A DNA stretch of 60,063 nt, counting the filler, from Hausera hauseri (lineage: Eukaryota): assembly GCA_046269625.1 (NCBI GenBank). It is 11 parts of 11 records of this genome, joined end to end, with 100 filler letters (N's around TTAATTAATTAA, not from the genome) between each part and the next. Parts side by side here need not be neighbours in the genome. Positions count along the whole stretch, not along the records: positions 1 to 7,951 come from JBJURY010854299.1; 10 more parts are not named here. One strand, given 5' to 3'. Under the pieces are notes generated by a model, which worked only from the letters and a program-made list of their open reading frames with translations, made no database searches and had not been told where the DNA came from. Positions 1-36,901 of the stretch are shown here, piece by piece (the first letter of the stretch is position 1; every line of letters starts with the position of its first letter). The position numbers and the translations under genes are program-made.

Positions 1-730
1 ACAAAGTGAAACACCTTGTTGAACTTGGGACAATGTGGATCTCTGATGGGAAATATTTTTGTCAGGACCAGCTACACAACGTACAGAACAATAGATTACT
101 TGCCTACAATCCAAATGACGTTCCTCATGTTATGACGACCAAGTTTCCCAAACTGTGATCGTTTCTGGATGTGTCTCCAGTAATGGTGATGTTATGTCAC
201 CTCACATCTTTGAACAGGCTCAATTCAAATGACTACGTGAAGTTGCTGAACGCCTAGGTAAAGCCTTAGTTGGCGAGGATGGCTTCTGGATGTCGATTTG
301 TGTGGCAGCAAGATTCAGCTCCTTGTTATNNNNNNNNNNAGAGTCAAACATTTTTTTCTGAGAATTTTTTACTATTTTACCAGTCCAGAAGTTTGACCCC
401 AAACTCCCTTTATTGCAATCCTGTTAATTATTATGTGTGGCGCGGTTGAGAAAGAAACAAATTGTACTGCCTGTAACTCCAAGACCCAGCTGATCCACAG
501 GAGTAAGGCGGCGTTTGAGACACTCCCTAAGAACACTGTGAAGGCCGTATGTGCCAGATTCCTGAGCTGGCTCGAAGTCGTCGTCGATGCTGAGGGTGGC
601 TTCTTTGAGTGAATTCTTTTGTGATTGTTTCAATCTTTATGTCACTTCTATTTTTCTAATAAATTTATTTTGGGCTAAGATTTTCACTTTTTTATTTTTA
701 AGAAACTGTCAAATTTATTCTGAACACCCT
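1..730 (+). mobile_element. Tc1/mariner superfamily DD37D (maT-like) transposon, decayed 3' half with right TIR
   Basis: Manual translation gives frameshifted motifs 'DVPHVMTTKFP', 'GCVSSNGDVM', 'WQQDSAP' (~303-323) and a degenerate WPPNSPDxNPLDYYVW-like stretch (~392-440). It ends in a CACCCT-TA-like terminus near 725-735, as for CAGGGTG-type TIRs. Confidence 0.75.
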
Positions 731-1021
731 TTATATATTCATCGAATATTAACTCGAGAAAACTAATGAAAATTTCAAAAAATAGTGGTTAAATTGAACA
801 AATGCTAAATACTGTCACATTTAGAATATTCAACTGCGCTATTTTAGCTTTGATGTTTTTTACAGTTCAAATCCATGATATTATGTCAAGGTTATGTATA
901 CTACTCATAAATTGTAAATAACTCATTTTTAACTAATAGACAAAACTCATCAGCCTTGTGAACATTGGAATTTGCTTTTTCTCTGAGACACTGGGTAAAT
1001 AACAGAATAGATCGAAAAACA

Positions 1022-2185
1022 ATCGAAACTAAAGCAATTATTTTTACTGCTTCATGTGTATTTTATTTAATATTGTGAGTTTTTATAATTCGAAATATTT
1101 CTAATATTCGTCAAATTAAAAGTTCAAAAAGTCATTTCATAAAATTTTGCTCAACACAATCAAAAACTTCATTTATATATACTTACAAAATGTTTTAAGT
1201 TAAATCTGTTGCTATACCTGAGAAGTTCTCATATTAAAAAGAATACTGGAGATGCATTTACTAGGTTATTCAATCTAACATAATAAAATTCTTTATGCTT
1301 GACTGATTCTCAAAATTCGAAAGTTCTACCTGTACTATATAGTAAATTTCAATTTGCACGCAATAATACATTTTCACAGACAAAAACGCATTTTTACTGG
1401 ATTAACCTGAAAATTACTCCGATTATTAATTCAAGACTAGTTTTCAGTAACATGTGCAGTTGAACACGTGGATTATTACGTCAAGTTCTTTTACGTAAAG
1501 GCCTACGTTCAGTCATTGTCTTAAGAACCACATCAAAATTATCAATTTCACTTTTATTTGTACTAAAACAGTACTCAAAGATCAATGCCGATTTAATTGT
1601 GGTTATTCATTGAGAAATAATGTCGGCCATCATCAACAATGAAGTAAATATAATTGTTATTGATTGGGACTGTTGGTCATCTACTAAATGACAGAGAAGT
1701 AATTGGCTCAATAGGATATATTACTAAATCTCTCGCTTTCAATTTCAATGCGACTCATATTATTCATCATCGCCATGGTTTCACTTTCATTGTCAGTTTA
1801 TAACCGTGAATAATAACCCATTTATCTTATGCATTTTCAGATGCTCCACAAACTTCTATTCCATAATTTGTTATACCTCAAAAGTGGGTACCATCGGTTA
1901 TATCAGCAGTGACTGCACCGCCTGTTTGATAAATAATCATTTCTCAAATATAACGTAGGTTTGGTTCAGAAATTAATTTACTTATCACAGTTTTCCAAAT
2001 CAATATACCAAAGTTGTATGCAATCCGATTGTTTACTTGATTCCGATATTTCTGGTAAATTTAACCAAGTTTCGATTAAGTCCGTTTGTTGTACCACTGA
2101 TTATTGTAATTCTGGAATTCAACTGAAAATGTTCATATCACCGTTAACTATGACATTGATGTATTTAATTTTACTGGAGATTTGA
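1022..2185 (+). pseudogene. Ly6/uPAR (three-finger, GPI-anchored) small protein gene, apparently disabled
   Basis: Predicted exons: 1022-1074 (signal-peptide-like ETKAIIFTASCVFYLIL), 1841-1954 (SIICY...C..C) and 1991-2185 (CCTTDYCN plus hydrophobic tail). Introns are GT-AG. The expected start reads ATC and exons 2 and 3 are out of phase by 1 nt. AATAAA at ~2249. Confidence 0.6.
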
Positions 2186-2434
2186 TGTTTTACTATTAAT
2201 TGATGTTTTCATTTCTTCTATTATTTTCCGATCAATGCACATTTCGTAAATAAATTCTTATAGTTTATCTTGTGGATGTTTATGATATCTCATAGATTCC
2301 CTTTTTTATAGACTAGTGAAATATTAGGCTGTGAAATAATACTACCTTGATATTGAGCTTGTTAAATGATGATTTGTCTGTTTCATGTCTTACAATGTAT
2401 AGTGATTTGAGGGTGAATCACTTATCAAAGCCTT

Positions 2435-3109
2435 TGTAAAATTTGATTATAATTCAAATTAGAAGTCCTTTAAGAACAACAAAATATATTGAAAATACAA
2501 ACAGAATAATAACAAGATTTGAAATAGGCTTTATGTAACACACAAGAAAATTCTCAACAACACAATCGTCTCAATAAGAAATTCAGTATTTTATAACTAT
2601 CTCAATCTATCTTATAACTTGCACTAGACAGTGTATAAGATCTAGATTCTCCGGATTACCGGGACTAATTGTTCCAATAATACTAGTTTGGGGTTTTGTA
2701 TTTATATTAGAATTTTCAATGACCTACCTCATTTTAGCCAATTAGAGTCAAGGCTAATCTATCTTTTAAATTTACCTAAATAAAACAACTACACTAAATT
2801 TTAATCTAATAGGTTGGGTGAATCTCTTCTTCTAGTACATTGTCCCTAAAATTTTATTTTAATTTACTAACCTTCTATAATCGAAATTAAACGGTAAGCC
2901 ATTAAGCTAGCATTAAGTAAACATGAATATTAAGATACTATCAATTGTTTGACATATGTAAATTTGATCTTACTAACATATGTGATCAATTTTCGCTCAT
3001 ATGTAGGTTAATTCTACTAACATTATTGGAAATTTTCATCTCTGGTAAGAATTTTTTATTTTATAAATATTTTTTCTATTTTATAAAGATATTTTACTCT
3101 TTTCTAACA
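2435..3109 (-). repeat. Putative 3' LTR of the cargo-bearing gypsy element
   Basis: On the minus strand it starts TGTTAG at 3109 directly after a polypurine tract and has TATAAAA near 2590. A candidate end ...TTTACA lies at 2435; this boundary is uncertain because no second LTR is available. Confidence 0.55.
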
Positions 3110-3122
3110 TTCCCCTACCCTT
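3110..3122 (-). other. Polypurine tract (plus-strand primer)
   Basis: Minus strand reads AAGGGTAGGGGAA immediately 5' of TGTTAG. Confidence 0.7.
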
Positions 3123-3284
3123 AAATTTTAGTTTATACATAATTTGAAAGACGATTGGGCATGAGTACAGGACAAAATGAACATAAAACTAGATATAATT
3201 ACAATGGTATACAAATAATTAAAATAAGGAATGGTACATAAATATAAGAGAAGACATAATGTAAAGTTTGTCAAAAATAAAATG

Positions 3285-5588
3285 TCAAATAAAGTCATAA
3301 TTATTGGAGTGTCCTTTTTCGGTTCTATCTTTCTCCTGGTTTGCATCCTCAGTCGAATTATTTCTTTCAATATCTTCTGAATATGGAGTGGATATATCCG
3401 AGGATTTCGTTCTCAGCTTGTTTTTTATTCGCACTAGAACTTCTTCGGTATGTGTTCCTTCTATTCTAGCTCTCTTCCGAGGTTGAAAAGTTTCTTTTGT
3501 ACTCCCAAAATGGAATTCATATTCAGCTTCTTTAAACCAAGTATATATAGTGTCATCATGAATCTCTGTATCTACATCTTTGATAGGAATCCACATAGTT
3601 TTATTTTATTGAACTGCTAATAGACCTGTTAACTTGTGAGCACTACTTCTAGCTACCAAATTGGTAACTATTTGTGCTGGGACTACCACCTGAGTTTTAA
3701 ATTCTGGAATATTTGATGCTCGCTCGGGATTCATCTCTATATGAAGCTGTATTATATCGGAGAACTTTCTGTAGGGGATAAGTAATTTCTTATCTCCTAC
3801 GATTTTGGTGTACTGGGCTGCTATTAGTTGATTTCCGATCGATTCCCAGTTTGTGATTTACTTATAACGAATACCTGTTTGAGATGAGACGTACTTGTCC
3901 ATAATGATCTCGTCTAATACTATCGGAATTAACAATCCATTACCCAATATAGCTAAAAGTAACCCATTCACTCTTGCTTTTTCAGAGATTTGGTCGGTTA
4001 AAGAATGCAATAAGGCCTTCATTAAGTCGTTGCTACTCATTTGTTTGGTCTGAGTTGATGTATTTTTTAATTCTTTCTTTCCTTCCTGCTTTAGTAAAAT
4101 TTCGTTTTCTTCATTAAACATTGGCTCGATGATCTCGCACTCCATTATTTCGAATTCCTCTTCCTCATTTGATGTTTGTTGTTGTACAGTCTCCACTTCA
4201 TGTCCCTTTTGTATGGTTGCTTGAACTTCATATTTCCATTGCAGCTCGCCCAGGTATCTAGCTTCTCTATTTAATATATCTCCAACGTCAATAACATTAT
4301 TGTGAAGGTCGGGAGGCATCCATTCATAAGTTTCTATGAGTTGTTTATGGGCCTCTATCGTGAGTTGTAATCTCCCAATAGTGGTACTAGGAAATCTACT
4401 CAGCTTGAGATGCAATATCATTTTGTTTATCGTGTTAATCCTTTTGTCCATGGTATTTTCCGCGCATTTGAGTGGGTCAAAGACGGCACAGGTCCAATTC
4501 ATAGGAATTTTCATTGCCTTAAATGTTTTATGGGCTTCCAAAGCAATTATCTTAAATCCGAGTATATATTTTTTATCTCACTTTGTACCTCATGTGAGTC
4601 TATACCCTATTCTATTTGTTCCCACGTTATCGAATGCCTGATTCTGTTCAGGTTATAAATATGTCTGCGTGGAGCGATGATTCTGTTTAGGATAATTTCT
4701 CCATTTTTTTTCAGCAATTGCTACTTCCACTGGTAGTGGGATTTGCTTTCCATCTGATTTCTTTCCATAGGCAAACGAAATGGCTAGGTATCTGATAATT
4801 ATTGATTTATTTGTGTATATAATATTTGGTTCTCCCATTAAGTCCTTATCCGATGGTTCAATCTTGTATCGTAGTGGTAACAAAATCGATGTTGGTTTTT
4901 CTTTTCTTATAATATCGATCATGCCAAAGTTCATTAGTTCCTTGGCAATGATCCTAGTATTCGTTGTATCCACTTGGAAGTTAATTTGGTAGGATTCCTG
5001 TCCATTAATCGTTTCTAAGCTGTTTCGGCGTCCCTTTAATCCTCTAAATATTAAGATAACTTTTCCGATCGCTAGGTGTATCGTGATTCCGTTATTCTCA
5101 CCTGTCCATGCTGGAAATCTGAATGTAGTCTCCGAGTTGAATATTTTGAAAGGGAGGATTTCCCGGTTTCTTTGTTCGCCATACTTCAAATTGTTAGGTA
5201 TTTTGGTAACTTCATTAATTCTGTCTATTGAATAATCTAAATATGCTAGAACTTTATCGTAAAAGGCGTAGGTCATAGTATTTTCTGCTGTACTGAGTTT
5301 AATTATGGCCTTCTTTTCGTCCAACTTTTGTATTGGGATTCTTTCAGGAACTTTGAAAATTTCTTTTCCTCCGATTTTCGGGTTTATATTTACTGTTTGA
5401 CTGCTTTCGGACTCCAAAATCTGATTGTTTAAGTTCTTTGACATGACTCTTTTTGTGGCTTTCTGTTGTTGCATCGATATTTTATAATTTTCTTGGCTGC
5501 GTCTGACTGGCCAACACATGAAATTTCTTAATGAGTTAAATGTCCCTTTCTGATTGGTTCTAGATTTAAAAATTGCATAACGCATCAT
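3285..5588 (-). pseudogene. Retroelement cargo ORF2 (~770 codons, interrupted): unknown N-domain, DEDD exonuclease-like domain, acidic linker, unknown C-domain
   Basis: ORFs 4653-5630, 3858-4541 and 3285-3596 join through frameshifts at ~4700-4570 and point stops. The reconstructed 'RYLAISFAYG...PVEVAIAEKNGEIILNRIIAPRR' aligns with 48781-49296 and 54885-55094. Confidence 0.7.
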
Positions 5589-7290
5589 GATTGGTCCTGT
5601 GAGAGAAAGGATTATTACTATTGAAGTCAAGTCTAAATGTATTGGGTGAATTGGGGCTGTTTTTAAAAATCAACAATGTTAGTATTGGCGTAAAGCAAAA
5701 TATACTGTGCGAATTTTCATTTGGGTCAGTTAATATAGGCTCGTTAACCACCGCATCTCTGATCTCATTTATCTCCATTCTATGGTTTAAAGCGAAGAGT
5801 GGCTCTTGAACGGTATATGTTTCATTATTATTTCGGATTACTGAATAGTGAGATCTGTATCGTTTCTTCTTTTTACATTTGACTTTATGCTCAAATGCGA
5901 CTAATAAACTAACTGTGATACCCAATAGTAACAAGATGAGAAATACCCACCAATACTGGGTAAAGTATTTTTCCGTGGTTATTGGCGCAGGTGTAGTTTT
6001 CTGCCAATTCTCGTCCTTTTCATTGTAACGTATATTTCTATATCTATCTGGTGCAGGTAGTGTCCTTATGGCCAGAAGTTTCGAATTGTCCTTAGTCCTT
6101 ATGTGTACTAAATAATTCGTGTCTGGAGTCAACTTTTCACAAAAGTTTCGTTTGTTCATATTGTAATTAAAACTAGTCTTCTCATGAGTACCTGTACATG
6201 ATATTAGGATACTCTGGTTATTCGAGTTTTGGGAAAGTAGAATTTCAATCCGATTTACATATGGTGTTAACCTAACCTTTATTGGAAACTCTCTTATGAG
6301 TTTTCCATAAAACGTGTTTGTTTATCTTCGACTCCTGTATTATTATTTTCTCTTTTTTTAAATTCAACATAAGTTCCCTTTTTGGCTTGCGTTGATCCTC
6401 TACTCTTGATTTTCGTGGACTCTTTGTTGTTGATTTGTTTGGAGTCTCTAATTTTCCCCTACCCTTAAAAGTAATGGTCTGAGTGGTTAATGAATGTGTA
6501 GCTGTCGTATTTTTAGTGGTAATAGTTGTTCTGATAGGTGGAGACGCGATCAGTCCCAATTGCGTCTGTGGGAGGGAAATAAAGAGTGGTAGTTGGAACG
6601 AATGTATACGATTAGAAGTATCACGTTTGAGATACATATCAAAACGAATAATATACCGAATATTGGTATGAAGAGTACAGCAAACATGTGGATGGGCTCC
6701 ATTCAAATGACATAGATGTAACTGAGGTATGCTGTGGGGGAAAGAGTCGAACCATATCTGAATTTCATACCCGAGGGGTAGAAGTTGTAAGGTTCGAAAA
6801 TTGATGCAGGGGCGAGTCCGATGCACATTGATCATTACAAGATTATTCTTCAAAAATTGAGCAGTAAACCCATCATGTAGTGGTGCTGGAGGATTACCGA
6901 GAAAGTCCATGATATAATGCAATGGGACCTGAATATTGAAATGAGGGTCCCATTTGGAGATGTATTCCTCATGTCTAGACTCTTTAAGCAATATGTGGTA
7001 AGTATAGGATGTACCATATTCGAGTTGACAGCATGTCTGATTATATTTCTCGAAGATTGAACACTTGGTTGTTTCCTTATCTGAAGATGTGAAGATAATT
7101 GTAATTTCATGTTGTGGGGGAACTGGTGAATGTGTTTGGAAGCAAATACTAGGTGTATCAACGTCAACGTGAGTAATGGTCGTGTGTTGAACCAAGTCGA
7201 CATAGTTGTTTGCAGCTATTACCATTCTCACCGAAAACATTATGAGGATAAGTAGGATCATTCCAACGTATTTACGTGGAGTGAGGTGAA
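5566..7290 (-). CDS. Type I membrane protein fused after integrase: signal peptide, two Cys-rich FN3-like repeats, Thr-rich stalk, FN3 domain, TM helix, tail (one frameshift near 6290)
   Basis: Signal 'YVGMILLILIMFSVRMVIAA'; repeats 'CCQLEYGTSYTY' and 'CCTLHTNIRYII'; stalk 'TTITTKNTTATHSLTT'; FN3 tyrosine corner 'LTPDTNYLVHIRT'; TM 'WWVFLILLLLGITVSLLVAF'. Confidence 0.7.
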
Positions 7291-7951
7291 TGCGATAAGT
7301 AGTAGAGTTATGTTTATCCCATTTTTGTTGCAGGAATAAGGCAGCGGCTTTGTTATCTACCATTGCTGGCGATTCTAGTTCTGCTTGTCTTAAGAATTCG
7401 GTATATGAAGAGGGTGCTCTCGTAACTCGTTGTACGGATACAGCCTCGTACTTGTCTGCAGCCTTACGAATGAAAAGGGTCTGGGGGCGAACATCAACCA
7501 CTTCATATGGTCCTTGACCAGTTCGTGTTAACTTCAATGATTTACCCTTTTTTGCAACGGGATAATGAATCATTACATAATCGCCAATTTTGTAGGCATG
7601 TGGGCGCGCTTTCTTGTTAAAGTGTTTCTTATATCCAGTTTTGTACTTCTCTTCAAATTCTTTAGCCTCATGTTGAAAATATTCTAGCCTTTTCAGTAGA
7701 TCTTGAAACTGATCGTCCATGTGATCACTAATTTTCAAAGATGACGGCAATAATTCAGTGTCTAGTGGTAACAGTGGCAAGCGTCCATACATCAGTTCAA
7801 AAGGTGAATGGTTAGTACCTTTCGTGGGTGTAGTGTTAACAGCAAAAGCGGTAGTCTTGAGATGAAGATGCCAGTCCTTTTGATCGTGTGCAACCTTTGT
7901 TGAAAGAATGCCCTGTATTGTTCTATTCATTCGCTCAACCATACCGTTACA
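7290..7951 (-). mobile_element. Ty3/gypsy integrase C-terminal half
   Basis: 'NGMVERMNRTI' (catalytic E), 'SPFELMYGR' and GPY/F motif 'GQGPYEVV'. Truncated by the contig edge. Confidence 0.92.
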
Positions 7952-9339: not shown

Positions 9340-10045
9340 ACAAGGTCAGTTGAGTTGGTCAATGACTAAACAAGAGCAAGAAAGTTAATTGCAAAGCCGA
9401 ATTTTGTACACAGCACTATTTATTCGGAAAATTTTGCTAGTATCAAAATGCAAAAGACGATTCTCAATTTTAACAAGCCGATTTATGTTGGAATGTCGAT
9501 ACTCGATTTGTCAAAAACACTCATGTATGACTTCCACTATAATGTCATGAAGCCAAATTTTCCAGACATTCAACTAATGTATATGGATACGGATTCATTC
9601 ATATATCATATTAGATCTGATGATATATTCAATGATTTTTATAATTTGGCAAATTTCTTCAATACATCAGATTATCCGAGAGACCATAAGCACTTTTCCT
9701 TGTCAAATAAAAAAGTTTTAGGGCAAGTTAAGGACGAAGTAAATAGCAAAATTATTACTGCTTATGTTGGACTTCGTCCGAAAATGTACGCTCTTAATGC
9801 AGATAGACAAATTAAGAAAAGGGCCAAAGGTTCAGAGAGATACACTTGAGAAACATATCTCGTTTCAAGATTACATTTCAGTCCTTAATAATTTCTCAAC
9901 ACTATTATCAGACATGGGATGAATTGTGTCACATGACCATGTTGTGACGACAAATGTACTACGAAAGAAATGTCTGAGCTTCTTCGATGACGAAAGATTT
10001 ATTCAATCTGATGGGATATCAACTTTGCCTCATGGACACTTTTAT
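9340..10045 (+). pseudogene. Protein-primed DNA polymerase B (Polinton/adintovirus type), C-terminal fragment
   Basis: 'NKPIYVGMSILDLSKTLMYDFHY', motif C 'YMDTDS', 'GLRPKMYA', 'KKRAKG'. Frameshifted tail ends in a FDD...LPHGH-like segment; AATAAA at ~10058. Confidence 0.9.
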
Positions 10046-10400
10046 TTTATATAATTAAATAAAATTTTGCATGTGTTGTTTTTATCTTTTAAGTTTTCGA
10101 TTTTAAAAATTTCATAATGTTGTTATTTGTAAAGTGAAAGAAAAGACGAAATAGTATTTTATATATTTTTATTTTTTATTAAAAGAATACATAACACCAA
10201 ATTCAAGGAATGTATCGACTGAATGATTATCATCGGCTAAAGACAATAGTACCAATAAGCAATAAGTACCAATTTCGATTCACCCAATTGTCAAATTGAC
10301 TTTTAACGCATCAATTTAATTAAAGGGGTGGGATAGAGGTTTGTCCCAGAATTCCCATTTTCCCACTACTATCGATGCAATGTATCATTCCACTTTCCGA

Positions 10401-12174: not shown

Positions 12175-15100
12175 GGAGCTTGGAGTAGGTTCTGGTAAAG
12201 GAGTAGGAATAGGGGTCGGACTGTAAGGGGGTGCAGGGGGTGTAGGAACTGAAAAGGGAAAAGGCGAAGGAGTCAAAAAAGGGGTAGAAGAGTCCATTTG
12301 GAGGGAATTGTCTATAAAAAATGAATGCTTAACGTTGTTAATAAGCATCGCTAGTTCCTTACGACTTTAGAAAAAATAGCATTGTGAGAGTGCAGTTGGA
12401 CGAGTTTTGAACTTTGCAGAATATAAATCGTCGGGTAGGTACAATTTATTATTATGTATTATTCGGCAGAATGAATCTTTGCTGACTGAGACAAAATGAT
12501 TCTGTGCCGTTTGGATATATTCGTCTGTAGATGTATCTTCCAAGGCAGTAAGCTCGAATAATGAACGTACGGGTGCTTCAAATAGGGCTTCCGTAGGTGA
12601 AAAACCTGTAGAAGTGGAAGGAGTGTTTCGCCAATGTAGTAGAACTAACGGAAGGATGGTTGCCCAACTGCTATTGGATTCAGCGAGAATTCTCATTGAC
12701 GTTTTCAGTGTTCTGTGGTATCTCTCTAGAAGACAATTTGATTGGGGATGATACGGTGTTGTGTGTATATGGCTGATTCCTAATCAGTTAACGAGTGATT
12801 TAAACAAGTTAGACTCAAACTGAGTACCTTGGTCTGTAATAATGAACCTAGGGGATCCAAACCTGCTGATCCAAATGCGTATGAAAACGCTAACTATTTT
12901 GTCCGTGTTAGTACTTCGCAGAGAGCGGCTTCTGGCCATCATAAGGAACGATCCATCATGGTCAAAATGAACTGATGACTGTTGTCAGGAGGGAGAGGGC
13001 CAATAAGATCTATATGTGCGGACTCGAAACGCGATGTGCAAGGGAAATGATATAATGGTGGCTTCAAATGCTTGATAGTTTTAAATTTCTAGCAGGCCAC
13101 ACATTTCTTAACCCACGCTTGCACATCAGGAAGCATAGACGGCCTGTTTTTAAAAGGCAGGAGCTAAGATTACTTTGGACTGTCCTGGTTTAGACGTGTC
13201 GAAAGATACTCCATCGATGATATTGCTGGAATTAAAAGATTTAAGGATGTCTTTAGGTGGTTGGTTTTCCTGAAGCTGGCTGAGTAAAAATGGGCTTAAA
13301 GTTAATTGAGCTAACTGACCGAGATAAAAAGTAGGCGACTAAATTGCTAACGCCGTTGATATGTTTTATTTCAAAATTAAATGTCGACAAGTACGAAATC
13401 TGCCGTTCCTGTTGAGTAGAAGGATTTTTCATTCCCATGATGTCTATTAAGGGTTTGTGGTCAGTTTGCATGGTGAAACGCCGAGCAGTGAGCAAGTGTG
13501 AAAAATGTTTTAAGGCGAGAACTATCGCTAGTAGTTCTCGGTTGAACGTGGAGTATCTGGTTTCAGGTGGTGTTAGTTTGCGTGAAAAGAACTCCAGCGG
13601 CTGATTTTCTCCTCTATGAATCTTGTGTAGTACAGCGCCTATAGCGGTAGTAGAGGCGTCTGTAGTAAGGATAAGCTCATCGTCTGGTTTAGGGTATATT
13701 CTCTTGACTTATCGAACTTATCTAGCAGTTTCGGTGTTTACAGTATTGGATGGTGCTTTTCCCCGCTACTGAGGTAAGCAAAAGATGCGGTTAGGTCGGA
13801 GCAATATGGGACATATTTGTGGACGAAATGTACTGTACCCAGGAAGCTCCTCATTTCAGTGGTTGTACGCGACAATTGTACGTTTTTTAGGGCTTCGATA
13901 CGGTCAGGCTGAGGAGAATGTCCGTCGGGGGAGACAACGTGTCCGAGGAAATTTATGCGTCGTTTGAAGAAATGACATTTTCTAAAGTTTATCTGGAGGT
14001 TGTATTGGTGTAAACGGTGAAAAATCGATCGTAGATATTTCTCATGCTGATTGATGGATGAAGAAACAACTAGAATGTCATCAATGTAAGGATAAGCATA
14101 AGGAAGATCAGAAAGAATTGCACCTATGTGACGCTGGAAAGTTTTTACGGCATTTCATAGGCCAAAATGCATATATAAATTTTCATAAAGGCCGAAAGGT
14201 GTGGTAACGGCGGTTTTTTCGATATCTTCGGATGACACCGGGATTTGGTAATAAACCTTGGCCAAGTCAATAGTGGAATAGATTATGGTGGAATTGAGAC
14301 GACGTAATGTGTCTTTTATCAATGGTAAGGAGTACGCGTCTATTATAGTCAAAGAATTTAGCTTCCGATAATCACCACATGGTCGCCACGATCCGTCCTT
14401 TTTTGCACGACACGTAGAGAAGAAGGCCATGGCGACTTTGATCGGCGTACAATTCCGCAGCGTTCAAGGTCTGCGAATTCGGCTTTAACCGCATGTCTGC
14501 ATCTGGACGATAATGGTCGTACCTTTTGGCGGATAGGTCTTTGATGTTGTATTATAATATAGTAAAATGTGGTATTTGCTAGTGTAAAAGACCTGTCTTT
14601 TTGAATTATTCTAGAAGATACGTTGATAAGTTGCTGCAGACTTGCAGGTAATTGTGAAAAGTTTGGCGGAAGCGAGGTTGTTGTATCAGTAACTGTAGCA
14701 ATTTGTGAGTCCTTTGGTGATCGAAAATAAAGTTGTATTCAATGCAGGATGGTTGTATTAAAGATGGTGTTGCAGATGGTAGTTGTATCTACTGATTTGG
14801 CAGTGGTAACGGAATCACGTGCATCTCCGTGCAATCCCCAATTGTCAGTAATATTGTTCTTCAATAATTTATAAAACAAATGACCATGATTGTAAAAAAA
14901 GTGGTTTGTTCAACGGTTTTTTAATACCGGTTTTCGACTTACATTCACCTGCACGATAGAGGAAATGGTATCGACATGATCAAATCGCTCTTTATTGCAA
15001 CCACTTGCTAAGCAACGTTGTTTGTAATCGACAATGAGATTATAGTGCGAAAGAAAGTCGGATTCTAAAATGGTTGTCTGGACGTTTGCAACGGTAAACG

Positions 15101-16461
15101 GCCAGTGAAACATTGAAGTAGATGTCGGAAGGGTAAAAGAAAGCTTGCATGCACCGGAAACGTGTAATGGTTGTCTGGAAGCTGTAAATAGAGGTTTATA
15201 TTTGGATAAAGTGTATTGAGTTGGAAAGGTGAGCGGCAGTAAAGAAATCGCTGCACCTGAATCGATAATGATGTCTATGTGGCGAGTTGTTGGTAACTTA
15301 GTTACTGCTTTTACTGTAAATATAGAGAACGAAAGTTTTCGGCTGGTAGGAACTGGAGAATGGCTTTCGCCAGAACTCGCCGTAAGCTCTGGCGGATGTC
15401 AGAAAGTAAGAGAGAACGTCCGACGTTCGAATGTTGAGTTCTGCTTCTAAAGGTACAACCAGAGATACACTTATGTGCATCATGCTTAATCTTTTCGTGA
15501 TAAATGTAAATAGCGTTGTTAACGTGATACTTTTTGGTGTAAAATCGGCACTCGAGATGATATTTTTGTGCTTTATGAGGCAATCTATCATGGTAAAAAC
15601 AGATCAACGATCGCGTAGGAGAAGGTGATCGACATCTAGGTACAGAGCGTGTGCGATCGTAGACGGAACCCCTTTGTTGAGTCATTGAGATTTCATTTAA
15701 TCTATCGTTGATATTGTTTATTGTATTATGTAGGGCTGTGTTTTCGGCCCGCTGCTGTTATATTTGATATTCTAATGTGTTGTCGTTTGCTGTAAGCGCT
15801 GCAGAAATGATAGGCTGTGTGTTTAGGTTTAAGACCTCGTACGATTTGTATGCAAGTTCGACTAACGTATCTAGCGCCGTCGATTCCTCGACGACGGTAA
15901 GCAGGGCCCAGATCTGAATCTGTAATGCGTTTAAAAAGTAACGTCGTAAGAGATCAGAATTATTTTGTTTTGTAACGCCCAATGTTTACAGTTGAGCGAA
16001 AGAGGTTCTGAGAAAATCGGATGGCTTTGTGTACCCATAGCGTTATCATTGAAGAATCTATGGATTATGGAATCCATAGACGGTTCCATGAGTTTTAAAA
16101 CTGCGTTATAGAGATGGGTGTACGGGTCGGATTGTTGAAAGATGTCTAAAATATCGTGAAGAGAAGTCTTTACTGTGTTTGGTAAGAGGCAAAGTAAGAT
16201 ATAAGCTTTGGCTGAGGGATCAGTAATGTTGTTAGACTGCAGCCAAAGTTTATGAAAGTCAAGCCATGTTTTGCTGGACTTTTCATGGTCAATACAGTAT
16301 TCTGCGCACTGAGAAGAAGTGTGTTTGGCTGGCGGGATGGTAGATGTAAAAGTGGTAAAAGTTGATGGCGTGGTGACGGTCGTTGAATTTTGGCGAAAAG
16401 TGAAGGGTGTTGGTTTAGAGTTAGTTTTATCAGTAGTGTCAGTGGTGAGCGAAAAATTCAT
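12175..16461 (-). mobile_element. Decayed Ty3/gypsy LTR retrotransposon, CsRn1/Kabuki-like clade (gag-PR-RT-RH-IN)
   Basis: Gag 'SKTWLDFHKLWLQSNNIT...DPYTHLYNAVL' with degenerate CHCC knuckle 'CFYHDRLPHKAQKYHLEC'; protease 'IIIDSGAAISLLP' (~15260); RT 'KKDGSWRPCGDYRKLN' and 'YIDD'; RNase H 'TDAS' and 'TDHKPL'; integrase 'TTPYHPQSN'. Confidence 0.92.
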
Positions 16462-18630
16462 GCCACCACGGATACGAATGTGTACGTGAATAATGACATA
16501 TTGGATTTAAGGAACAGAAAGGTTGCAAAAATTGACATTAATTACAGGTAGATTGTTGTAAGTGAGGTAAAAGTCAGAGATATTAATGAAGTGTAGTACA
16601 TAATTGTGCAAGTAGGATGCGTCTGTAAGATACATTATTCTGTGTCCGGATAGCTGGTAATTATTTAGCAAAAAAAGAAAAGAGTGTTGGTGTAGGTCCT
16701 ATTAAGTGATATGGTGAAGGAACGAACCATTGAGTAACACCCACTGACATAGGAAAAACGGCCGGACAGTCGTTCACACTGTAATGTACCCGAACACCCG
16801 GGGTGACCGGGTACCCTCCGGTGGGTACAGTGACAGATATATTTTGTTTCAATTGTACAATCTTATTGCCCTCGGGAAAAGCAATTAACTGGATAGTATC
16901 AGTAGAAACTTTGTCAATCAGTGGCATTGTCGAAAGAATAAAAGTCTTGACGTACCCAGTAGATGTCGTTGACAAATGAGTGTCGAAAATTCCAAGATTG
17001 CACAAAAAATTGGTAATATTATGATCATACTTCCTGTAGTAAAATTCCAATATGAACCAGACTGCAGAACACATACAAAAGAAAACAAGGAATTTAAAAA
17101 TGATGTTGAATGCCAATCAAAATGAACGAGGGTGACCAGAAACTCAACAACACTGCTGCGCGTACTTCTGAACCATTCATATAGACTTATTCCATTACGA
17201 ACATATTGAACAAGAAACATCGATGATATCGATAAAACCATTTCCGCCAAATTACCACATGTATTGGGCAAAATCAAAAACAATATAACAAGGGAAGTAT
17301 CTCTTACTTTCTTTATCAGTTCCACGCGTATTTGGCCAGATAAGATGACTAAAATACTCTGAGTAATCGATGTTATCCGGTAATTTTATGTCAATAAAGG
17401 AAAGCAATTCCTTTCCGATGAATTGTGCACTGGTACAAATCAGTAGGAAAAAGTGAAACAACATCTGGATGGGACATATCGAAAGGTATTATAATTTCCC
17501 CGTCGTCAGAAAAATTGTCTATGGTAATAACTTTCCAACATCGTTGAATGTTAATAAGTATGAAACGGAATTTTTTAAACTTGGAGTATCTTTCAATATT
17601 GTCGAAAAAAACCAAATATTAGTTTCAACTTCACGTACGAAGTATGTTGGTAGAGAAGTAAAATCTGAGCCATAGTTTTAAAACATTTCTCGGAATTTGT
17701 ACAGTTGTAAAATAAGCCGAACAACGCAGCCCTCCATGCAGATAAATTGTAATACACCATGACAGCGATTGGAAATTTTTTTCCGGCGACAAAAAGCAAT
17801 AATTTAAGAACTTCAAGGGGGAAATTTCCTAATGTAAATTTCGAATCTAGATCGAAGTGTTGGTCGAAGATTGAATCAATACAGTTTACGCCAAACGATA
17901 GAGTTTGAAGGAATGTACGGAGTTGAGCAGTCAAAACAATACACCAGTTTTAATACGTTGAGAAATGTCGATAGAGTGGATGATGTGATAGTTAGCTTGT
18001 ATAATCTAACAATGGATATCAAACCACAAAAAATAATAGTATAGCGTGGTAGGATTTCGTTCTGAAGCTGTAAAAAGGAGCAAAACAGGTCATGATCGTA
18101 ATACTCAAACGTATCATGACGATAATACAAGTTAAGGACTGTCGATAACGATCGTAAGATATCGTTAGGCCGCAATATGGAAAAGGCGATATGCAAATAT
18201 GACAAGATATATTGTACTACCGGAGACTGAAAATCATATACAACAAATATGGCAACAGGCGGAAATAAAATTTATCTGTAAAAGATATGAAAAAAACAGC
18301 TGCCGACGAATTTGCAACCAATAATTAATCTTACCCTGTCGTACACTAGTTTCTCGAACGAGTACAGCGTAGAAGTGTCCATAAACACAGTATATGGCCT
18401 TGTAATTTCTGGTATGCAACATCGCCAAAACGGAACTGATAGGACCATTGACCGAATGCTTCAAGTTCCATTCGTATCTCGTATATTATCAACGACAACT
18501 CACCATGTGCCACAATGGTGTCATTGAGGCAAAGGGTTGCCATCGGCCAGAATCTGAGTTGCACAACAGATCTGGCACAATCTGCCCTAAATCGTGCTAA
18601 CGCAGTCGGTAAACACATATTGAGAATGAT

Positions 18631-21068
18631 TTAGACGATCGTGATCAAATTTTCCGTATGCATCTGTTCAATGCTGTCTTCCTCAAGTTCCATAAAGTCG
18701 AATACCCTTTTAACATTAGCATTTTCACATCTCTGCAAAATATCCTCGAAATGAGGAATCTGATGCAAAAGCGAATCACGATGCCACTGTGCCTGAGTTA
18801 TCATCTGTACTAATTCCCGCCGCCAGTTTCGGACATCAACACAGGCTTGAATGAATCTGATACGTTTCACTAATATTTGATTGAGACGTTCTCTAAGTTC
18901 AGCTGCTCTAATTGGAATACAAAGAAAAGGGGAGTGAAGTATTATACTGGCGTTGATCTTTGGATCTGCTAAACTTCTCTTGTCCAACGATGCCATTTGA
19001 AGAAACGGTCGAATTTTCGATAAGATAACATCTTCACTATGCCAAATTAGGAGATTTTCAAAGTCATCGGCACCGCAAAAAAATTCTAATAACCCTTTTA
19101 CTTTTGAATTGGCCCGCAGTGAATTGCTGAACATTTCGAATGTGGCATAATGAATGTAATAAAATACAGCGATCATTCCTAAATTGAATAGTGTTACATC
19201 AATATCATCTTTGACTGTTATGTATTGTGACTTTTCAAAATCGTTAAGTGTTCTCAACGAGTTCACTAAGATGATCACTTAAATGGTGATGACTGACACC
19301 GCCCAATTGATAATAATTCGGATTCTTTGTCATTCGGTAATAAATGAACGTCCATGTCAAATAATCTGCTGCATCTTGTTTGTTCTCAATCGTTTTTCTA
19401 AGGACCTCAGCATTAAAATGATCATGCAAATGATGACCTAAATGAGACTGAAGCGGTAGCGGTTCACAAAGGAATTTATCAGTAAAATCCTTCTTATTAA
19501 TCTGACGCATAATTATTGCCCTGGCATCGTCATATTGGACGCTATTTGTACTACCGATCATCTGGGTCAAATCAACAGCTGCATAATCATTGTACATATA
19601 ATCTTTGCCACTGTAAACTGGAGTATCCATGACAATAACCAAATGACCATTTGATGGAATTGACCAACACAAACTATAACTAACAACCAATATTTGAATA
19701 AAATGATTCGAAAACAGTTCCAGCATTTGATTGCGTTCATTATGAGACAGAGTTTGATGAATTAAAGCAATGCCGAATGTTAAAGTTTCAATTTGAATTT
19801 CATTGGTAATTTTGGCCATATATTCTTTCAATTGTGTTTCTGTTGCTCCAGTGAAATTCTGCTTATCGGACAATGCAAATCCCATCAGATTGAATTCTGT
19901 TATTTCTGTCTGCCTCATTGTTGGTGTAAAAATAATTATGGAACTATTCGTTGGAGTTCTAATTACAGATTGATAAATTGGTCCCGTCATAGCATTCAAC
20001 CGAGTAGCCGTAGGAGCAATGTTAAAATTCGTTAATTCAATATTAATTGGACAATGACGGACATTTGGATAGAAATTATACGTTGCCGCATTACTGCAAT
20101 CCAACCATTCACCAACATCTATGGCATTACTGATTGAATAAGACAAACCGATTAATCGTATTGGATTTTCAAGTTGTGAACTCATATATCTAGTTCTTGA
20201 ACACAAGTTCAAGTGTACTTCCATTGTGGTGACTATCGAGCAAGTGCAAATAATCTATGATAAACAAATTGATATTTTGAAGGCCTTTCTGTTCTTCCAA
20301 CGTCGAGACAACACATACCATTTTTCTGCCGGTGCTACAACAATATTTGCTTTGGCAATCATCCGTATATCGACATTCGTATTTCCTGTTAATTTAACAT
20401 TTTTTTTCAAACTACCGAATGTTTTCTTCCATTTACCATAGCCAATTTTAGCCGTTTCTTCAATTGCAGATATATAAACACAGTGACCTTCTGGTCCGTT
20501 AGAAAACAATCGCATAGTGGCAAATTCGGCACATTCCGTTTTCCAACTTCCCGTTGGTGCACCGAGAAAGACATTTTCATCGGAATTATACAATGATTCA
20601 AAACATTGCGTTTGAATTGCATTGATATTCTTCATTCGGTTGTTGTAAAATTGTTCGAATTCTTCATTTCTTAACACCTTAAATGGGAATTTATGCAAAT
20701 CAAGTAATTCCGTTGGCGGATGATTCTTCGACGGTAAAATTATTTTGAAAAACGTTAAAGGTATTTCCGTTTCAGATGCCAACCAGCGATCGGAGACAGC
20801 ACGAATAAAATAGAGCGGCGGTAATGGTTCAAACATTGGCACAAAGAATGTCAAAATACGGTCGTCATCTATAAATCGTTGTGTTAGTACAAAATATTCG
20901 TGATGTAAAATACTTTCACCCATAACATCCTCAACGAATATCCAAAATGCCTGCGAATTACCGTGATGTTTATCATTCTAACCAAAATCCGCGGTAATCG
21001 TCAATTCAACTTTCATCGTACTGCGTTGTATCGACTGTAAATGGCATTTCAATCTCAATATCGGTATA
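18631..21068 (-). pseudogene. SNRNP200: U5 snRNP 200-kDa helicase Brr2, C-terminal cassette fragment, intronless and frameshifted
   Basis: 'ILHHEYFVL', 'FEPLPPLYFIRAVSDRWL', 'PPTELLDL', Walker A degenerated to 'GAPTGSWKT', 'DAADYLTWTFIYYRMTKNPNYY', 'HLSDHLSELVENT', Sec63-like tail. Split over three ORFs with internal deletions. Confidence 0.9.
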
Positions 21069-21168: not shown

Positions 21169-22030
21169 ATCCTCCATACTCTGTTTTCTGGGTAATAAGT
21201 CCGCAAATGTTTATTCGGTTTATTCTGTCGTACTTCATAGAGGTCAAATTTTATTTTGAATTCTTGGTTTACGGGTAGCTTACAACATTTGTGTCGCACA
21301 CCGGCATGAACAGAACAATATTGTATTTTTGGAATTTTTCCATTTACTGCTTCGAAAACAATACTAATCTCTTGACCCTGAGTCAATCCTCTTTGAACAT
21401 TTACCTGGATGCATTGTTTTTCCTTATCTACTGAAATCGTTTTGATATTTTCCTCTAATAGACTTATATTTGGGTCAGTAGATTTTAGCATTTCGCCGAG
21501 TTTCACTTCGAATCGTTTGATCAAAGTGGAAATAACTAACTGAAGTTGTGGGTTTATTTCGATATAGACTTCCGATGAGTCGGATAAGTATAGTTGGTAA
21601 GTAAGGGTATAGATGTGCCCGAAACCTACGTCGCAGCACTGCTTATAATATCCGGATTCAAAATCGCAGTTTATCGCCTATTTTGTTGTTACATCGTATA
21701 GTATCACTTGAAATCTTCCGAAATCGTGATGTGGTTTCCATGTTTTAAATCCAATGCACACAGAATCGCGCGAAAAGTACTGAGCCTTCATTGATTGTAA
21801 CAAAATAGTGTCTTCGCGTTTTTGGATCTCTTCAGCTGTTGGTTTCTTCTTCGCTATGGCATTTTTTGCCTTTAGTCCACTTTTCCGTATTCCGTATACG
21901 TCTCCTAGCGTAGATTCATCGTCCCACCATTGAGTTTGTGTTCTTGGAGTATACGAAGCAATTAACGATAGTGCTAAAGCTATCTGAACGTATGATATCG
22001 GTCTAGCAATTATTGAAAAGGTTTTTATCT
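21169..22030 (-). pseudogene. Post-integrase Cys-rich FN3-like membrane protein, N-terminal part (homologue of 5566-7290 and 46788-48094)
   Basis: 'HYNLR' integrase-end motif, then signal 'RPISYVQIALALSLIASY' and repeats 'CDFESGYYKQCCDVGFGHIY' and 'YCSVHAGVRHKCCKLPVNQEF'. Confidence 0.75.
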
Positions 22031-25480: not shown

Positions 25481-26148
25481 GTTCCAAAATAATTTGATGC
25501 AGCTTTTGGGCGTTTAGTTGCCGATATTTTATGTCCTTTGATTCGGATTTCCGGGGAGGATAATATGTTTTTCGATAATTGTTTCAGTTCTCCGTTTGGA
25601 TATAACTCATTGTTTTCGATGTACAACTATTCCGTTTCGTGTGTACTAATTAACGATTCTCGATTGTTAGTGTGTGGTTCTATATTCCGGAAGGTTTGTA
25701 TTCTTTGATTTCCCCAGACAGGCGGTCTAGTCTTTATATTCCGCGGTTCTGTCAGCGAATACAATATTCTGGGGTCATCCACGGGCTGTCGATAACACAT
25801 TTTCTGTAGGACTCCATAACGTTTCGTTCCTTCGTAGAGGTCTTCTAAACTAATTGTCCTTTTATAGATTTCTGTCTGATACGAACTCACTGATCGTTTG
25901 TCACAGTCTTCATAGACTGGGGCAGTAGGGGGTAACATAGGCAATGGTCATTTAATGACGGGATACGTCTTGTCTCTAGTTGTTCTTGGAAGTACTTCTC
26001 CTCCCTTAGGCTCGTCATCATCTGAATTATTTCTCCGCTTATTGGTTCTTGTGAATTTCCACTTGTACAAAAACATAGGCCTTCCTTTTCGTTTACGATT
26101 ATGATAACCGACATGAAGTTCTACGTCCGATTTCCATCTATTCTCTTA

Positions 26149-28020
26149 GTTTGCTTTCAAGAACTTCCCAAAAGGCGTTATGATTGCCGTCAGTATTTTG
26201 CACGAAAATCCGGTTAATGTAAATATTTCATAGCCATTTATTACCACTTGGATTGCGGCTTTAATCATTTGTATTAGGAAATATATCACTAAGAATCCCG
26301 AAGCAGCTCGTCAAAAGATCAAGAATCTACCCCAAATTTTGTAGAGAATTTCTATGGTTACTCGTTGGTAATGATTTACACCAAGCAAGGTTTCCCATTT
26401 AGCTTGATGTCCAGTATCGTCTACTGCGGAGGCTATGGCTCGATTTAATTCATGTGTCCGCTGTCGCAGAAAAGCGAGAAATTGTCTGAGGGGTTCAATC
26501 TCCCTCGGCCTATATATGCCCTTTTACGAGATGTCTTGAAACTTATCGTCGGTAATCCCTTTTGCATGATTTGTTCCTGTTAATTTATTTGGAGTGGCAG
26601 TAATACCCCCATTTGGCAAACTACCCCAATCCGATTCACTACGCATAAACATGGGTTCTGCCAAACTTGCTTTACAATCTTTAAGGAATGTTGGTCTAGT
26701 TACATTGTCTGATAACACTCTAGTAAGCTGCGTGGCTAACCTTGGGTTATTCTGGTAGATAACGTGGAGTTCCTGTATACAATATTTTTCTTCAACGTTG
26801 ATAGGTACATCTCTTTTTTTACAAGTAATTGGACCGAAAATTCATTCTCTCATGGGAATTATTGGTGAGGCTAGTTCAGGGTTGGAATAGATAAGAGACA
26901 GTTTTGTCCTCATGATTTCCATATCAAATTTATAATCATTCGTTATCATTTTGTGATATAACTCGGTTATTCCGACTTGCCCTGTGTAATAAAAGTAATC
27001 GTCCCGGTTTTTCAGGTAATCCTAAATACGAATATCCTGCGTTTCTAGCTTGAGGGTTTTCGCATTTATTTCCGTTTCTGTGACGAAAAATGATTCATAA
27101 TTAGTGGCGAACATCACCACTTTGCAACGGGAGATCATTTCTTTCTTAATAAATTTTAATCCATGTTGGTCAATGATCATTATAGTAGACGTGGGGTGTT
27201 CTCATACGTCCTTGCATGTCCTGGAGTTGCTATCGGGTTTATCTACATACCGTTTTCCGGTGGTTGCGTTAAATTTCAATTCTTTGATTTTGACAAAATT
27301 ACAGCTTCTTTCAGAGGGAGGTTCCCATATTATAACGGAACTTCTAAAAGCACAAGTTCCGTCTTGTAAATGGCATTTTTGATTCTCGGTGTATAGTTTG
27401 GTGACGCTAAGGAACATTAGTTTCTGTACTCGTATCTTCGAGTCATAGAAATTTACGACCACTACTTTTGCTTCTAGTCCTTTTTCGGTGTCATACTCTG
27501 CTCAATTACAATATCCATTATGCATGTATAGCCTTCCAACCACTACGTTATATGCCCTAATTATCTTTCCTGGTTGCATTGCCAGTTCCATACTATCCCA
27601 TTTTAGTCTTCCGGTTCCCCTGGCCTGCTTACAATGCTGGCGTTTTAAATTAATTATGATTGGAGGAGTAGTTTGTATGATTATTGAAGAATGTCTATGC
27701 ATTAATCCACATTGAAAAATGCTACGAGATCGTCTCAGCATACATTCCATTCCATGTAACGATATCAATTCTTGTTGGTGGTACAGAAAATAACTTTTCT
27801 CTCTCATTTCTATCTTATGCGGTTTGGCATCTTCACATACATCTAAATCCATTAGAGAATATTTCCTTCCTAGTTTAAACTTATCGCAATCGCAGACAGT
27901 AACAGCACCTACATGCTTTATTAGCATCATCAAAGTGAGTAAGCTGATTAACCAATAGACTTGTGTTGTTTGTTCCATCAAATATATCATCTTTGAATTT
28001 GATATAGCTTGTAATTGCAA
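26149..28020 (-). pseudogene. Chuvirus-like (class III fusion, gB-related) envelope glycoprotein, ~620 codons, disabled by point stops only
   Basis: Signal 'VYWLISLLTLMMLIKHVGA', then 'VCDC..YSLMDLDVC', 'ECMLRRSRSIFQCGLMHRHS', 'CHLQDGTC..VIIWEPPSERSC', 'CIQELHVIYQN', 'GIYRPREIEPLR', and TM region 'KIWGRFLIF*RAASGFLVIYFLIQMIKAAIQVVINGY'. Motif order matches my recollection of chuvirus-type glycoproteins. Confidence 0.85.
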
Positions 28021-28153
28021 TGTCTGGTTCCGTCGTTACACAAGGTCCACTTTNNNNNNNNNNNNNNNNNNNNNNNNNNNNNNNNNNNNNNNNNNNNTTA
28101 ATTAATTAANNNNNNNNNNNNNNNNNNNNNNNNNNNNNNNNNNNNNNNNNNNN

Positions 28154-32711: not shown

Positions 32712-32899
32712 NNNNNNNNNNNNNNNNNNNNNNNNNNNNNNNNNNNNNNNNNNNNTTAATTAATTAANNNNNNNNNNNNNNNNNNNNNNNNNNNNNNNNN
32801 NNNNNNNNNNNAATTGATGTTGGATATTGATATGAAGTAAGTTTTTGTATACTTGTGTATATTTTATACATGTAGTACATTTCAGATTGAAAAGGCCTT

Positions 32900-35800: not shown

Positions 35801-36901
35801 GCACATGCTGTCCTCATTATGGACATTGATGCATGCCTTTTTCTTAACTATCCAATCAGGAAGCGGTATGTATGAGCTGCCTCTCATGGGAGAATACTTG
35901 TGCACATGCACAAGTAACCCCTTTATTGTTGCTAAAGTCCAACCGCTCTTCTTGTCCTGGCTTTCTTCGGCTTTACGGATAAGCCTTGCATAGTCATCTG
36001 TAATGAAATTCTTAATGTTAAAGGATTTCAATAGTGTCCTGTTCTTTGTTTTGAAGGCCCTATTAGACAGCTCCCCTTTGACATTGGTGAAGGTGGCTAC
36101 CAATTTGAAGCTCACCTTAAGGGCCTTCAGCTCCAACAAGTTGTCCTCGAGAATTCCTGCTACCTCCTCCCTTGAATATTCCAGGAAATTATGGAGCGAT
36201 GTCTACCTTACTGCTGCTATGAAGTATCGCCACACCGCTTTCTTTGGCTTTTTGATGGAGCATCTGCTACTACTTCTGATAGGCGTTTTGGTCCTGCATC
36301 AGGCCTTGCTCCCAAAGCAGGATATACAACTGGCTGTGCTGCTAAAGCAGGGTCTGCTGCCAAAGCTGGATGCTGGCCATTAAATATGACCCTTTTTGGC
36401 TTTGAATTGAAGTCTGTCAAATGAGCAATATAATCTTTGTAAAACTGCATGTATTCTCCATAGCATACAACCTCACATCCAGGGCAAATATAATAGAGGA
36501 GTCTACTGAATTTGTATTCATAATAGCTCCTCATGACATTGTGGAAATTCTGAGGGTTGTGTATTACACATGTGCAATAAACATATGAACTGCATCTTTG
36601 ATTTTTCTTTGGCACGAAAGTCTTTATTAGCATATTGGTACTGAATATTTATTTTTTCAACTTAGTGAAGGAAATCAAGTGCTGTTTATGGGCATTGTAA
36701 AAGTCTTCATAATTGGTTTGGCACATTACCTTACATGTAGGGCATATACAATACTAAACCCTGTTGTACATATGGCCAAAGTACTTCTTCATAACACTGT
36801 GGCAATTTTTCAGCTCGTGGATTTGAGCCAAAAATTCGCTGTAAAGTTAGCACATCTAAAATCAATCAATTATTTGAGGAGCACAATTAAAAACTCACCA
36901 T
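32900..36901 (-). pseudogene. Near-complete protein-primed DNA polymerase B (Polinton/adintovirus type) with few frameshifts
   Basis: ExoI 'VIYCDFE', endonuclease VII-like 'CYLC..VRDHCHFTGMYRGAVCNNCN', ExoII 'FHNLSGYDSHF', motif A 'YLDANNLYG', motif B 'KLYNNSVFGKT', motif C mutated to 'YMDAD', 'FDDKR'. ATG|GTGAGT intron 36898-36856. Confidence 0.93.

Follow-up and report, generated by a model that had tools for sequence, protein, structure and literature searches.

A predicted FN3-like membrane protein encoded behind a Ty3/gypsy integrase in Hausera hauseri, a candidate attachment partner for a gB-like Env

In the genome assembly of Hausera hauseri (GCA_046269625.1), the reading frame of a Ty3/gypsy integrase runs on without a stop into a membrane protein, which raises the question of whether this protein belongs to the element, how it folds and what the element might use it for. 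The stretch of DNA analysed here (60,063 nucleotides, hereafter the window) consists of 11 unlinked contigs of 4-9 kb each, joined by 100-nt joiners (N44-TTAATTAATTAA-N44). Since these joiners are artificial, open reading frames (ORFs) spanning them are artefacts, and since the contigs are separate, the three copies of the gene found in the window are not neighbours. The window is AT-rich (GC content 0.28-0.45) and crowded with decayed mobile elements. Judged by comparison of its copies, the gene for this protein, which is predicted to be FN3-like, is a real and conserved feature.

Results and discussion

Organisation of the gene on the first contig

On the minus strand of contig 1 (positions 1 to 7,951), a first frame of 559 codons is stop-free from 7951 to 6275, with its stop at 6272-6274. 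It contains, in this order, the integrase tail, a linker, a hydrophobic segment, two Cys repeats and a Thr/Ser stalk. A second frame on the same strand (6321 to 5569) encodes the LTPDTNY domain, a transmembrane (TM) segment, a basic run and a 108-aa tail with YSVI. The features are listed below, where P0001 is an intact relative described in a later section.

7424-7951, minus strand: C-terminal half of a Ty3/gypsy integrase with GPY/F module (GPY at 7505-7513, aa 147), open at the contig edge
7268-7423, minus strand: stop-free linker of about 52 codons, with Met codons at 7363 and, within the signal, 7261
7211-7267, minus strand: hydrophobic signal-like segment, predicted internal signal or signal peptide (aa 229-247; Kyte-Doolittle 2.55 over 19 aa)
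6917-7192, minus strand: FN3-like domain 1 (predicted), four invariant Cys; model Z 8.3 to an FN3 monobody
6587-6856, minus strand: FN3-like domain 2 (predicted), an internal repeat of domain 1, four invariant Cys
6410-6541, minus strand: Thr/Ser-rich stalk (T+S 40% over 45 aa; 42-45% in two relatives)
6275-6321, minus strand: overlap of the two open frames, the frame break of the contig-1 copy
6055-6294, minus strand: FN3-like domain 3 (predicted), two Cys, LTPDTNY; 28.8 bits to the domain-3 profile
5893-5952, minus strand: predicted TM helix, followed by a basic stop-transfer run (Kyte-Doolittle 2.78; helix 429-465 in the P0001 model)
5569-5892, minus strand: cytoplasmic tail of 108 aa with YSVI (relatives: tails of 28-29 aa ending in YDSIT or YDRIT)

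The original prediction of a frame leading from integrase into a membrane protein is borne out, with shuffle tests and frame analysis in agreement, and the stalk, frame break, LTPDTNY domain, TM helix and Tyr-motif tail that it named are all present on this contig. The 556-aa ORF at 6272-7942 is indeed stop-free, but the Met at 7942 from which it was counted is an internal integrase residue and not a start, because the frame is still open at the contig edge at 7951. The Cys spacing had to be corrected: the proposed C-x(~8)-CC-x-L-x4-Y, in its x4 form, matched nothing, and the actual pattern is C-x9-CC-x-L-x5-Y. As in Ty3/gypsy elements, the GPY/F module follows the integrase core.

Profiles of repeats 1 and 2 match each other with 17-37 bits, the score being reached by 0/500 shuffles in all six cross tests. 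The second frame matches the domain-3 profile, built from P0001 and the copy at 47 kb, with the score listed above (0/1000 shuffles), and over 641 window ORFs only two pieces of a training copy score higher. Comparisons of domain 3 with the profiles of domains 1 and 2 are mostly non-significant, so that a third copy of the same repeat is unsupported.

Position within the element

Contig 1 carries only the tail of the integrase. The complete Ty3/gypsy order of protease (PR), reverse transcriptase (RT), RNase H and integrase (IN) is found on a sister contig at 21-28 kb, whose integrase core is 58% identical to that of contig 1 at the amino acid level over 55 codons.

25948-28053, minus strand: sister Env, broken, of the herpes simplex virus (HSV) gB/Monjiviricetes type (class III), upstream of pol; PF24664
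22084-25440, minus strand: sister PR-RT-RNase H-integrase, broken; Pfam RVT_1, RT_RNaseH_2, Integrase_H2C2, rve
21169-22010, minus strand: sister copy of the FN3-like gene, signal and domains 1-2, truncated where the contig ends; 35% identity to P0001, E 4e-49

The sister contig (21169-28053) thus reads, on the minus strand, Env - PR - RT - RNase H - IN - FN3-like gene. Its Env matches the Monjiviricetes fusion profile PF24664 with an E-value of 3.2e-42 (aa 36-634, profile positions 6-601 of 653) when nine stops are read as X, and the D-x-G motif of the protease lies at 25416. Over the 290 codons between the Env TM segment and the protease, the Env frame is interrupted by only 3 stops and the other frames by 20 and 24, which indicates that Env and protease once formed a single ORF. 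The gene had been said to occupy the usual env position; this holds for its location, but the sister contig carries Env upstream of pol. Since Env sits ahead of pol, the FN3-like gene encodes a second membrane protein and is no replacement for Env. The proposed link to a class III fusogen is supported on the sister contig by this gB-like Env in cis.

The third copy and the ORF that follows the gene are listed here together with the ends of the contig-1 element.

46789-48094, plus strand: third copy of the FN3-like gene, broken, from signal to tail; E 2e-71 to P0001
48095-49293 (region to 50300), plus strand: accessory ORF behind the third copy, homologous to the contig-1 ORF
54582-55106 (region 54016-55397), minus strand: accessory ORF relative, 83% identical in sequence
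3288-5669, minus strand: broken accessory ORF behind the contig-1 gene, the same neighbour as in the 47-kb copy
3110-3125, minus strand: polypurine tract (PPT), then TG at 3109, the probable start of the 3' long terminal repeat (LTR); LTR end and 5' LTR not identified
6454-6469, minus strand: exact 16-nt internal copy of the 3' PPT within stalk codons, candidate internal PPT

All three copies are broken. Recurrence behind an integrase, as originally claimed, applies to the copy at 21169-22010, whereas the contig of the copy at 46789-48094 starts at the signal and has no integrase; linkage to a gypsy integrase is therefore seen for 2/3 window copies. The 47-kb copy is tied to the same element family by the shared downstream ORF. 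The two accessory ORFs give three collinear weak matches (pairwise E 9e-5, 6e-4 and 7e-6), and by this homology the order integrase - FN3 - accessory ORF is conserved. The best weak matches of the accessory ORF are to DEDD exonucleases (DnaQ, E 0.56; SDN1, E 1.4), with acidic motifs that are apparently degenerate, and no RING pattern was found in it.

The PPT with TG at 3109 lies downstream of the FN3-like gene, which places the gene inside the element. Cover by run X1 is low under the putative LTR, which proves nothing. The PPT 16-mer is the sole repeated 16-mer on contig 1, and any repeated 16-mer occurred in 8/300 Markov resamples. Its internal copy is a candidate second plus-strand priming site resembling a central PPT. 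Beyond the internal copy, the similarity continues into bases that correspond to the LTR start, only the terminal TG being different.

Relatives and conservation

A profile search of the FN3-like protein against 1,835,955,588 protein representatives (E<=0.001) gave two matches. The first, P0001 (E 1.4e-56), is an intact natural protein of 479 aa from a 4.9-kb ENA contig, which reads in a single frame through signal, three domains, stalk, TM segment and a 28-aa tail ending in YDRIT. It is 25-39% identical to the window pieces, with invariant Cys, and its N-terminal hydrophobic segment aligns to that of contig 1. The proposed type I topology is supported by this protein. The second match, P0002, a repetitive Trebouxia protein with a 32-residue match, was dropped as a repeat artefact. 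Word-indexed protein searches returned 0/3155 candidates with alignment A1 (longer proteins) and 1/4286, P0001 itself, with alignment A3 (near lengths). No loci related to P0001 were found in the viral contigs or JGI metagenomes searched, and the search for a relative with a solved structure gave none by sequence (best E 0.053, unrelated).

Because P0001 and the 47-kb copy both read from domain 2 to the TM segment in one frame, the break at 6275-6321 is, as far as the copies can be compared, a lesion of the contig-1 copy and no programmed shift. Small indels around this position distinguish other copies. We also weighed a programmed frameshift at the stalk and discarded it, as the frame entered through the A-run ahead of the break hits a stop after ~23 codons and the two relatives read through.

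Over 2600-7951, run X1 yields 524 contigs (68 at 99+%, 98 at 95-99%, 141 at 90-95% and 217 at <90% alike), which indicates a multi-copy family; the run is possibly the source sample and is not independent of the window. From runs of two further coded organisms, 69 and 15 contigs were obtained, among them gap-free pieces over 6738-7096 and 5932-6292. Codon identity in the FN3-like gene is 0.55-0.62 at second versus 0.30-0.41 at third positions, a contrast that the protein-guided alignment inflates. Among the listed differences from 40/544 rows of the copy comparison, third codon positions account for 6/13 in this gene, too few to use, and for 14/22 in the accessory ORF. The tail is short and has no catalytic domain, and YDxI is kept in 2/3 whole copies.

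Predicted structure

An AlphaFold2 model of P0001, based on a six-row alignment, has a mean predicted local distance difference test score (pLDDT) of 66 and consists of three beta-sandwiches, a disordered stalk and a TM helix. Foldseek returned 228 PDB matches at E<=0.001, with fibronectin FN3 fragments on top (E 6.8e-9); TM-scores are low (0.14-0.19) because the packing of the domains differs. Taken separately, domains 1, 2 and 3 of P0001 align to FN3-type chains in VIA-align with Z-scores of 8.1, 7.5 and 8.0 and root-mean-square deviations (rmsd) of 2.5 over 91, 4.3 over 99 and 2.4 over 75, respectively. The model of the two contig-1 repeats (pLDDT 68) matches fibronectin in Foldseek (E 2.3e-6) and an FN3 monobody in VIA-align (Z 8.3, rmsd 2.9 over 84). 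About 42 of the 50 VIA-align rows for these repeats are presumably FN3-type chains, as taken from their titles.

The predicted models can thus be superposed on the seven-stranded FN3 sandwich, in line with the FN3-type beta-sandwiches expected in the original prediction, and the three domains are predicted to be FN3-like. No single host receptor stands out in the fold lists. A known fusogen fold does not appear among the matches listed from the PDB and the viral library, although absence from such a list excludes nothing. Neither outcome that had been named as fatal to the prediction, repeats that fold as a known fusogen domain or homologues that are ordinary intron-containing host genes without linkage to integrase, was seen: the predicted folds resemble FN3, and the search turned up a single true homologue, which is an ORF without interruption.

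A candidate attachment protein

The reading that we prefer, with a probability of roughly 45%, is that the FN3-like protein would serve the gB-like fusogen as its attachment glycoprotein and would probably be released from a polyprotein. The element would make an Env-Pol-FN3 polyprotein, with Gag presumably first and the chain ordered as signal, Env ectodomain, TM, cytosolic enzymes, second signal, FN3 ectodomain, TM and tail. Internal signals would thread Env and the FN3 protein into the endoplasmic reticulum, where signal peptidase would free both, while the enzymes would stay cytosolic. Predicted disulfides would hold the three beta-sandwiches, and the YxxI tail might direct the FN3 protein to where budding occurs. 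With its two distal domains, the FN3 protein might attach to a molecule on the host surface and thereby allow fusion by the gB-like protein, comparable to GN and GC of Atlas virus or gD and gB of herpesviruses.

The gB-like Env in cis with the FN3-like gene supports this reading, and the protein itself has features that fit attachment, namely a stalk, a short YxxI tail and a pair of FN3-like domains that are Cys-stabilised and diverge fast. The complete architecture of P0001, the FN3 matches of the models, the persistence of the gene over deep divergence, the Burro-like Env in frame with the protease and the Atlas precedent of two in-frame glycoproteins behind the integrase also speak for it. 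Between contig 1 and the sister copy, domains 1-2 are 29% identical against 58% for the integrase core, so the FN3-like domains diverge faster than the integrase, as surface attachment proteins tend to (PMC9094657, on GN). On contig 1, integrase and membrane protein stand in one frame in the sequence itself; given the local composition, a 55-codon linker free of stops has a p of about 0.027, a value that leaves aside the 1-in-3 chance of hitting the right frame. The membrane-protein frame of the sister copy is stop-free from 22205 and carries residues reminiscent of those behind VSVQ on contig 1.

Several points weigh against it. At the sister junction (~22200-22080) the integrase homology shifts frame three times, and the other frame has a stop two codons after VSVQ, so that the sister fits a fusion without proving it. 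A clear fusion to integrase is seen in a single copy, with a second one ambiguous. The gene call of P0001 begins at Met codons just ahead of its signal, and these starts, together with the contig-1 Met codons at 7363 and 7261, make a separate mRNA possible. Env stands in cis in just 1/3 window copies, the 5' part of the contig-1 element lying off the contig. On the usual view, Monjiviricetes-type G proteins carry out both binding and fusion by themselves, and a partner might be needless. Most gB-type errantiviruses are described with three ORFs only (PMC13524379). The fold is affected as well: Pfam fn3 (PF00041) matches 0/6 rows of alignment A3 at E<=1, the models are only moderate (mean pLDDT 66-68 from alignments of 5-6 rows), Z-scores of 7-8 are close to the level that VIA-align calls common, and the FN3 matches in the ESM Atlas (0.85-0.88) fall below 0.9 and serve as leads only. 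Since the agreeing tools are not independent, the Z-scores are moderate and Pfam fn3 is unmatched, the FN3 fold stays a prediction.

Searches among longer proteins returned no intact fused Pol-FN3 protein (integrase tail, 0/621 at E<=1e-10; alignment A1, 0/3155), which is weak evidence. That the polyprotein is made throughout the family has, in our estimate, somewhat better than even odds. A wider version of the attachment reading, in which a metavirus lineage would have assembled a two-protein entry machine following herpesvirus logic from parts of different origin, is doubtful and is put forward tentatively: pol would be preceded by a class III fusogen of mononegavirus-like type, the integrase would be followed by an FN3 adhesion protein of host type, and both would be cut from one Gag-Env-Pol-FN3 polyprotein, the FN3 part setting which cells are infected.

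Alternatively, the protein might act in the producer cell and off the particle, as a host-modulating surface protein that mimics or blocks an FN3-type receptor, be it as a ligand sink or for receptor interference or superinfection exclusion. In the fold lists, the ectodomains of cytokine receptors and receptor kinases rank as high as fibronectin, host-manipulating domains are numerous in Burro elements (PMC6431247), and both the short tail without a catalytic domain and the further accessory ORF behind the gene would suit such a role. We nevertheless consider it unlikely, as no sequence link to a host receptor was found among 1.84 billion representatives. The WSXWS motif, which class I cytokine receptors have in the membrane-proximal domain of the pair, is absent from P0001 and the window copies, and, unlike the many viral decoys that are secreted, the protein sits on a stalk anchored in the membrane. 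A cell-cell adhesion protein, holding producer and target cells together for particle passage, would have a purpose like that of sORF2 in the Drosophila MDG1 group while being adhesive and not fusogenic. FN3 tandem adhesion molecules (fibronectin, contactin, NCAM2, sDscam) do fill the fold lists, a retrotransposon membrane protein in cell-to-cell transfer is already known (PMC11952523), and the YxxI tail agrees with it. However, a shared FN3 fold alone does not show adhesion and the sister element already carries a full fusogen, which leaves this explanation quite improbable.

In two further explanations the ectodomain matters little or not at all. The internal signal and TM segment might serve as an assembly tether that anchors integrase or Pol at the budding membrane, the ectodomain being secondary; this would account for the FN3 protein in frame with integrase on contig 1 and for the sister Env in frame with protease. 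It is very unlikely given that three disulfide-type domains are kept but the linker is not (27 versus about 50 aa, unalignable). The gene might also be a passenger, a piece of host mRNA caught by template switching and amplified without function, as the broken state of every window copy and the intron-free Brr2-like helicase piece that precedes another gypsy element in the window might suggest. Against this stand the same position and downstream neighbour in elements with 58%-identical integrase cores, the invariant Cys and the intact P0001, and no host parent gene was found in the protein searches (1.84 billion representatives; near-length A3 search), making a passenger extremely improbable.

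If the attachment reading is true, it would explain how such elements find their target cells. According to PMC13524379, gB-type envelopes are as common as F-type envelopes among invertebrate errantiviruses, and the entry of those carrying gB is stated to be unexplained because HSV gB requires partner glycoproteins (gD, gH and gL). A conserved second glycoprotein in cis would be a concrete, testable candidate for the missing gB partner, and it suggests a simple search rule, namely to scan behind the integrase in all GAG-ENV-POL elements. If the protein is a decoy instead, it would represent a retrotransposon-borne receptor mimic. Either way, the FN3-like gene escapes Pfam and env-centred annotation.

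Other elements in the window

A Brr2/SNRNP200-like helicase piece (Sec63, DEAD, SNRNP200_wHTH), intron-free and broken, lies at 18237-21068 (minus strand), upstream of another gypsy element at 12175-16700 (minus strand). Decayed pieces of a Polinton/Maverick-like protein-primed DNA polymerase B were observed at 28154-30800, 32812-36900, 38200-39650 and 9350-10050, and one Polinton/Maverick-like piece has an Endonuclease VII domain. A single contig holds a BED zinc finger (43256-43486, plus strand) together with a stray integrase zinc-finger piece (45071-45271, plus strand). Positions 1-660 (plus strand) have no Pfam match; by eye, from their motifs, we take them to be the end of a decayed Tc1/mariner-like transposase.

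Comparison with known systems

No FN3 membrane gene in an LTR element was found in the literature searched (Grohme 2018, Jurka 2007, Repbase and Sacco 2022 lie outside it). In Atlas virus (Belpaoviridae, Ancylostoma ceylanicum), in-frame glycoproteins also stand behind the integrase, in the order Gag-Pol-GN-GC, with an attachment GN-like and a fusion GC protein; however, it is a BEL/Pao element with a class II fusogen, and both glycoproteins came together from a phlebovirus-like virus (PMC9094657). In the elements described here, pol lies between the two proteins, the second of which has a predicted host-type FN3 fold. Bdelloid LTR elements with their varied ORF3 (PMC5408684) and the MDG1 group with sORF2 (PMC11952523) also have ORFs behind pol that encode DEDD-type proteins or membrane proteins that are not fusogens or not canonical. 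As described in these sources, they are small TM, GDSL or DEDDy ORFs that replace Env, and not an FN3 array beside a full Env.

The planarian giant gypsy elements Burro/GYPSM1 have Env in frame ahead of the protease in one polyprotein, a mononegavirus-like fusion protein and accessory ORFs that may be fused or separate (PMC6431247). The accessory domains listed there are MATH, BIR, BCL2, ankyrin, SUMO-like and dUTPase, with no FN3 protein among them, and the word fibronectin does not occur in the main text of that paper. In Burro elements, MATH, BIR and BCL2 precede Env, and the internal region reaches up to 25 kb. Their dUTPase lies between PR and RT, where the decayed sister copy has no Pfam match. 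Among the closest plans is that of the GAG-ENV-POL errantiviruses with HSV/gB-type Env, reported from flatworms, nematodes and bryozoans (Chary and Hayashi, PMC13524379). They share the gB/Monjiviricetes-type Env upstream of Ty3/gypsy PR-RT-RH-IN, where RH is RNase H, but that paper mentions no FN3 or second membrane protein, and the words fibronectin, FN3, immunoglobulin and accessory are absent from its main text. The FN3-like gene behind the integrase therefore appears to be a new variation on the GAG-ENV-POL errantivirus plan.

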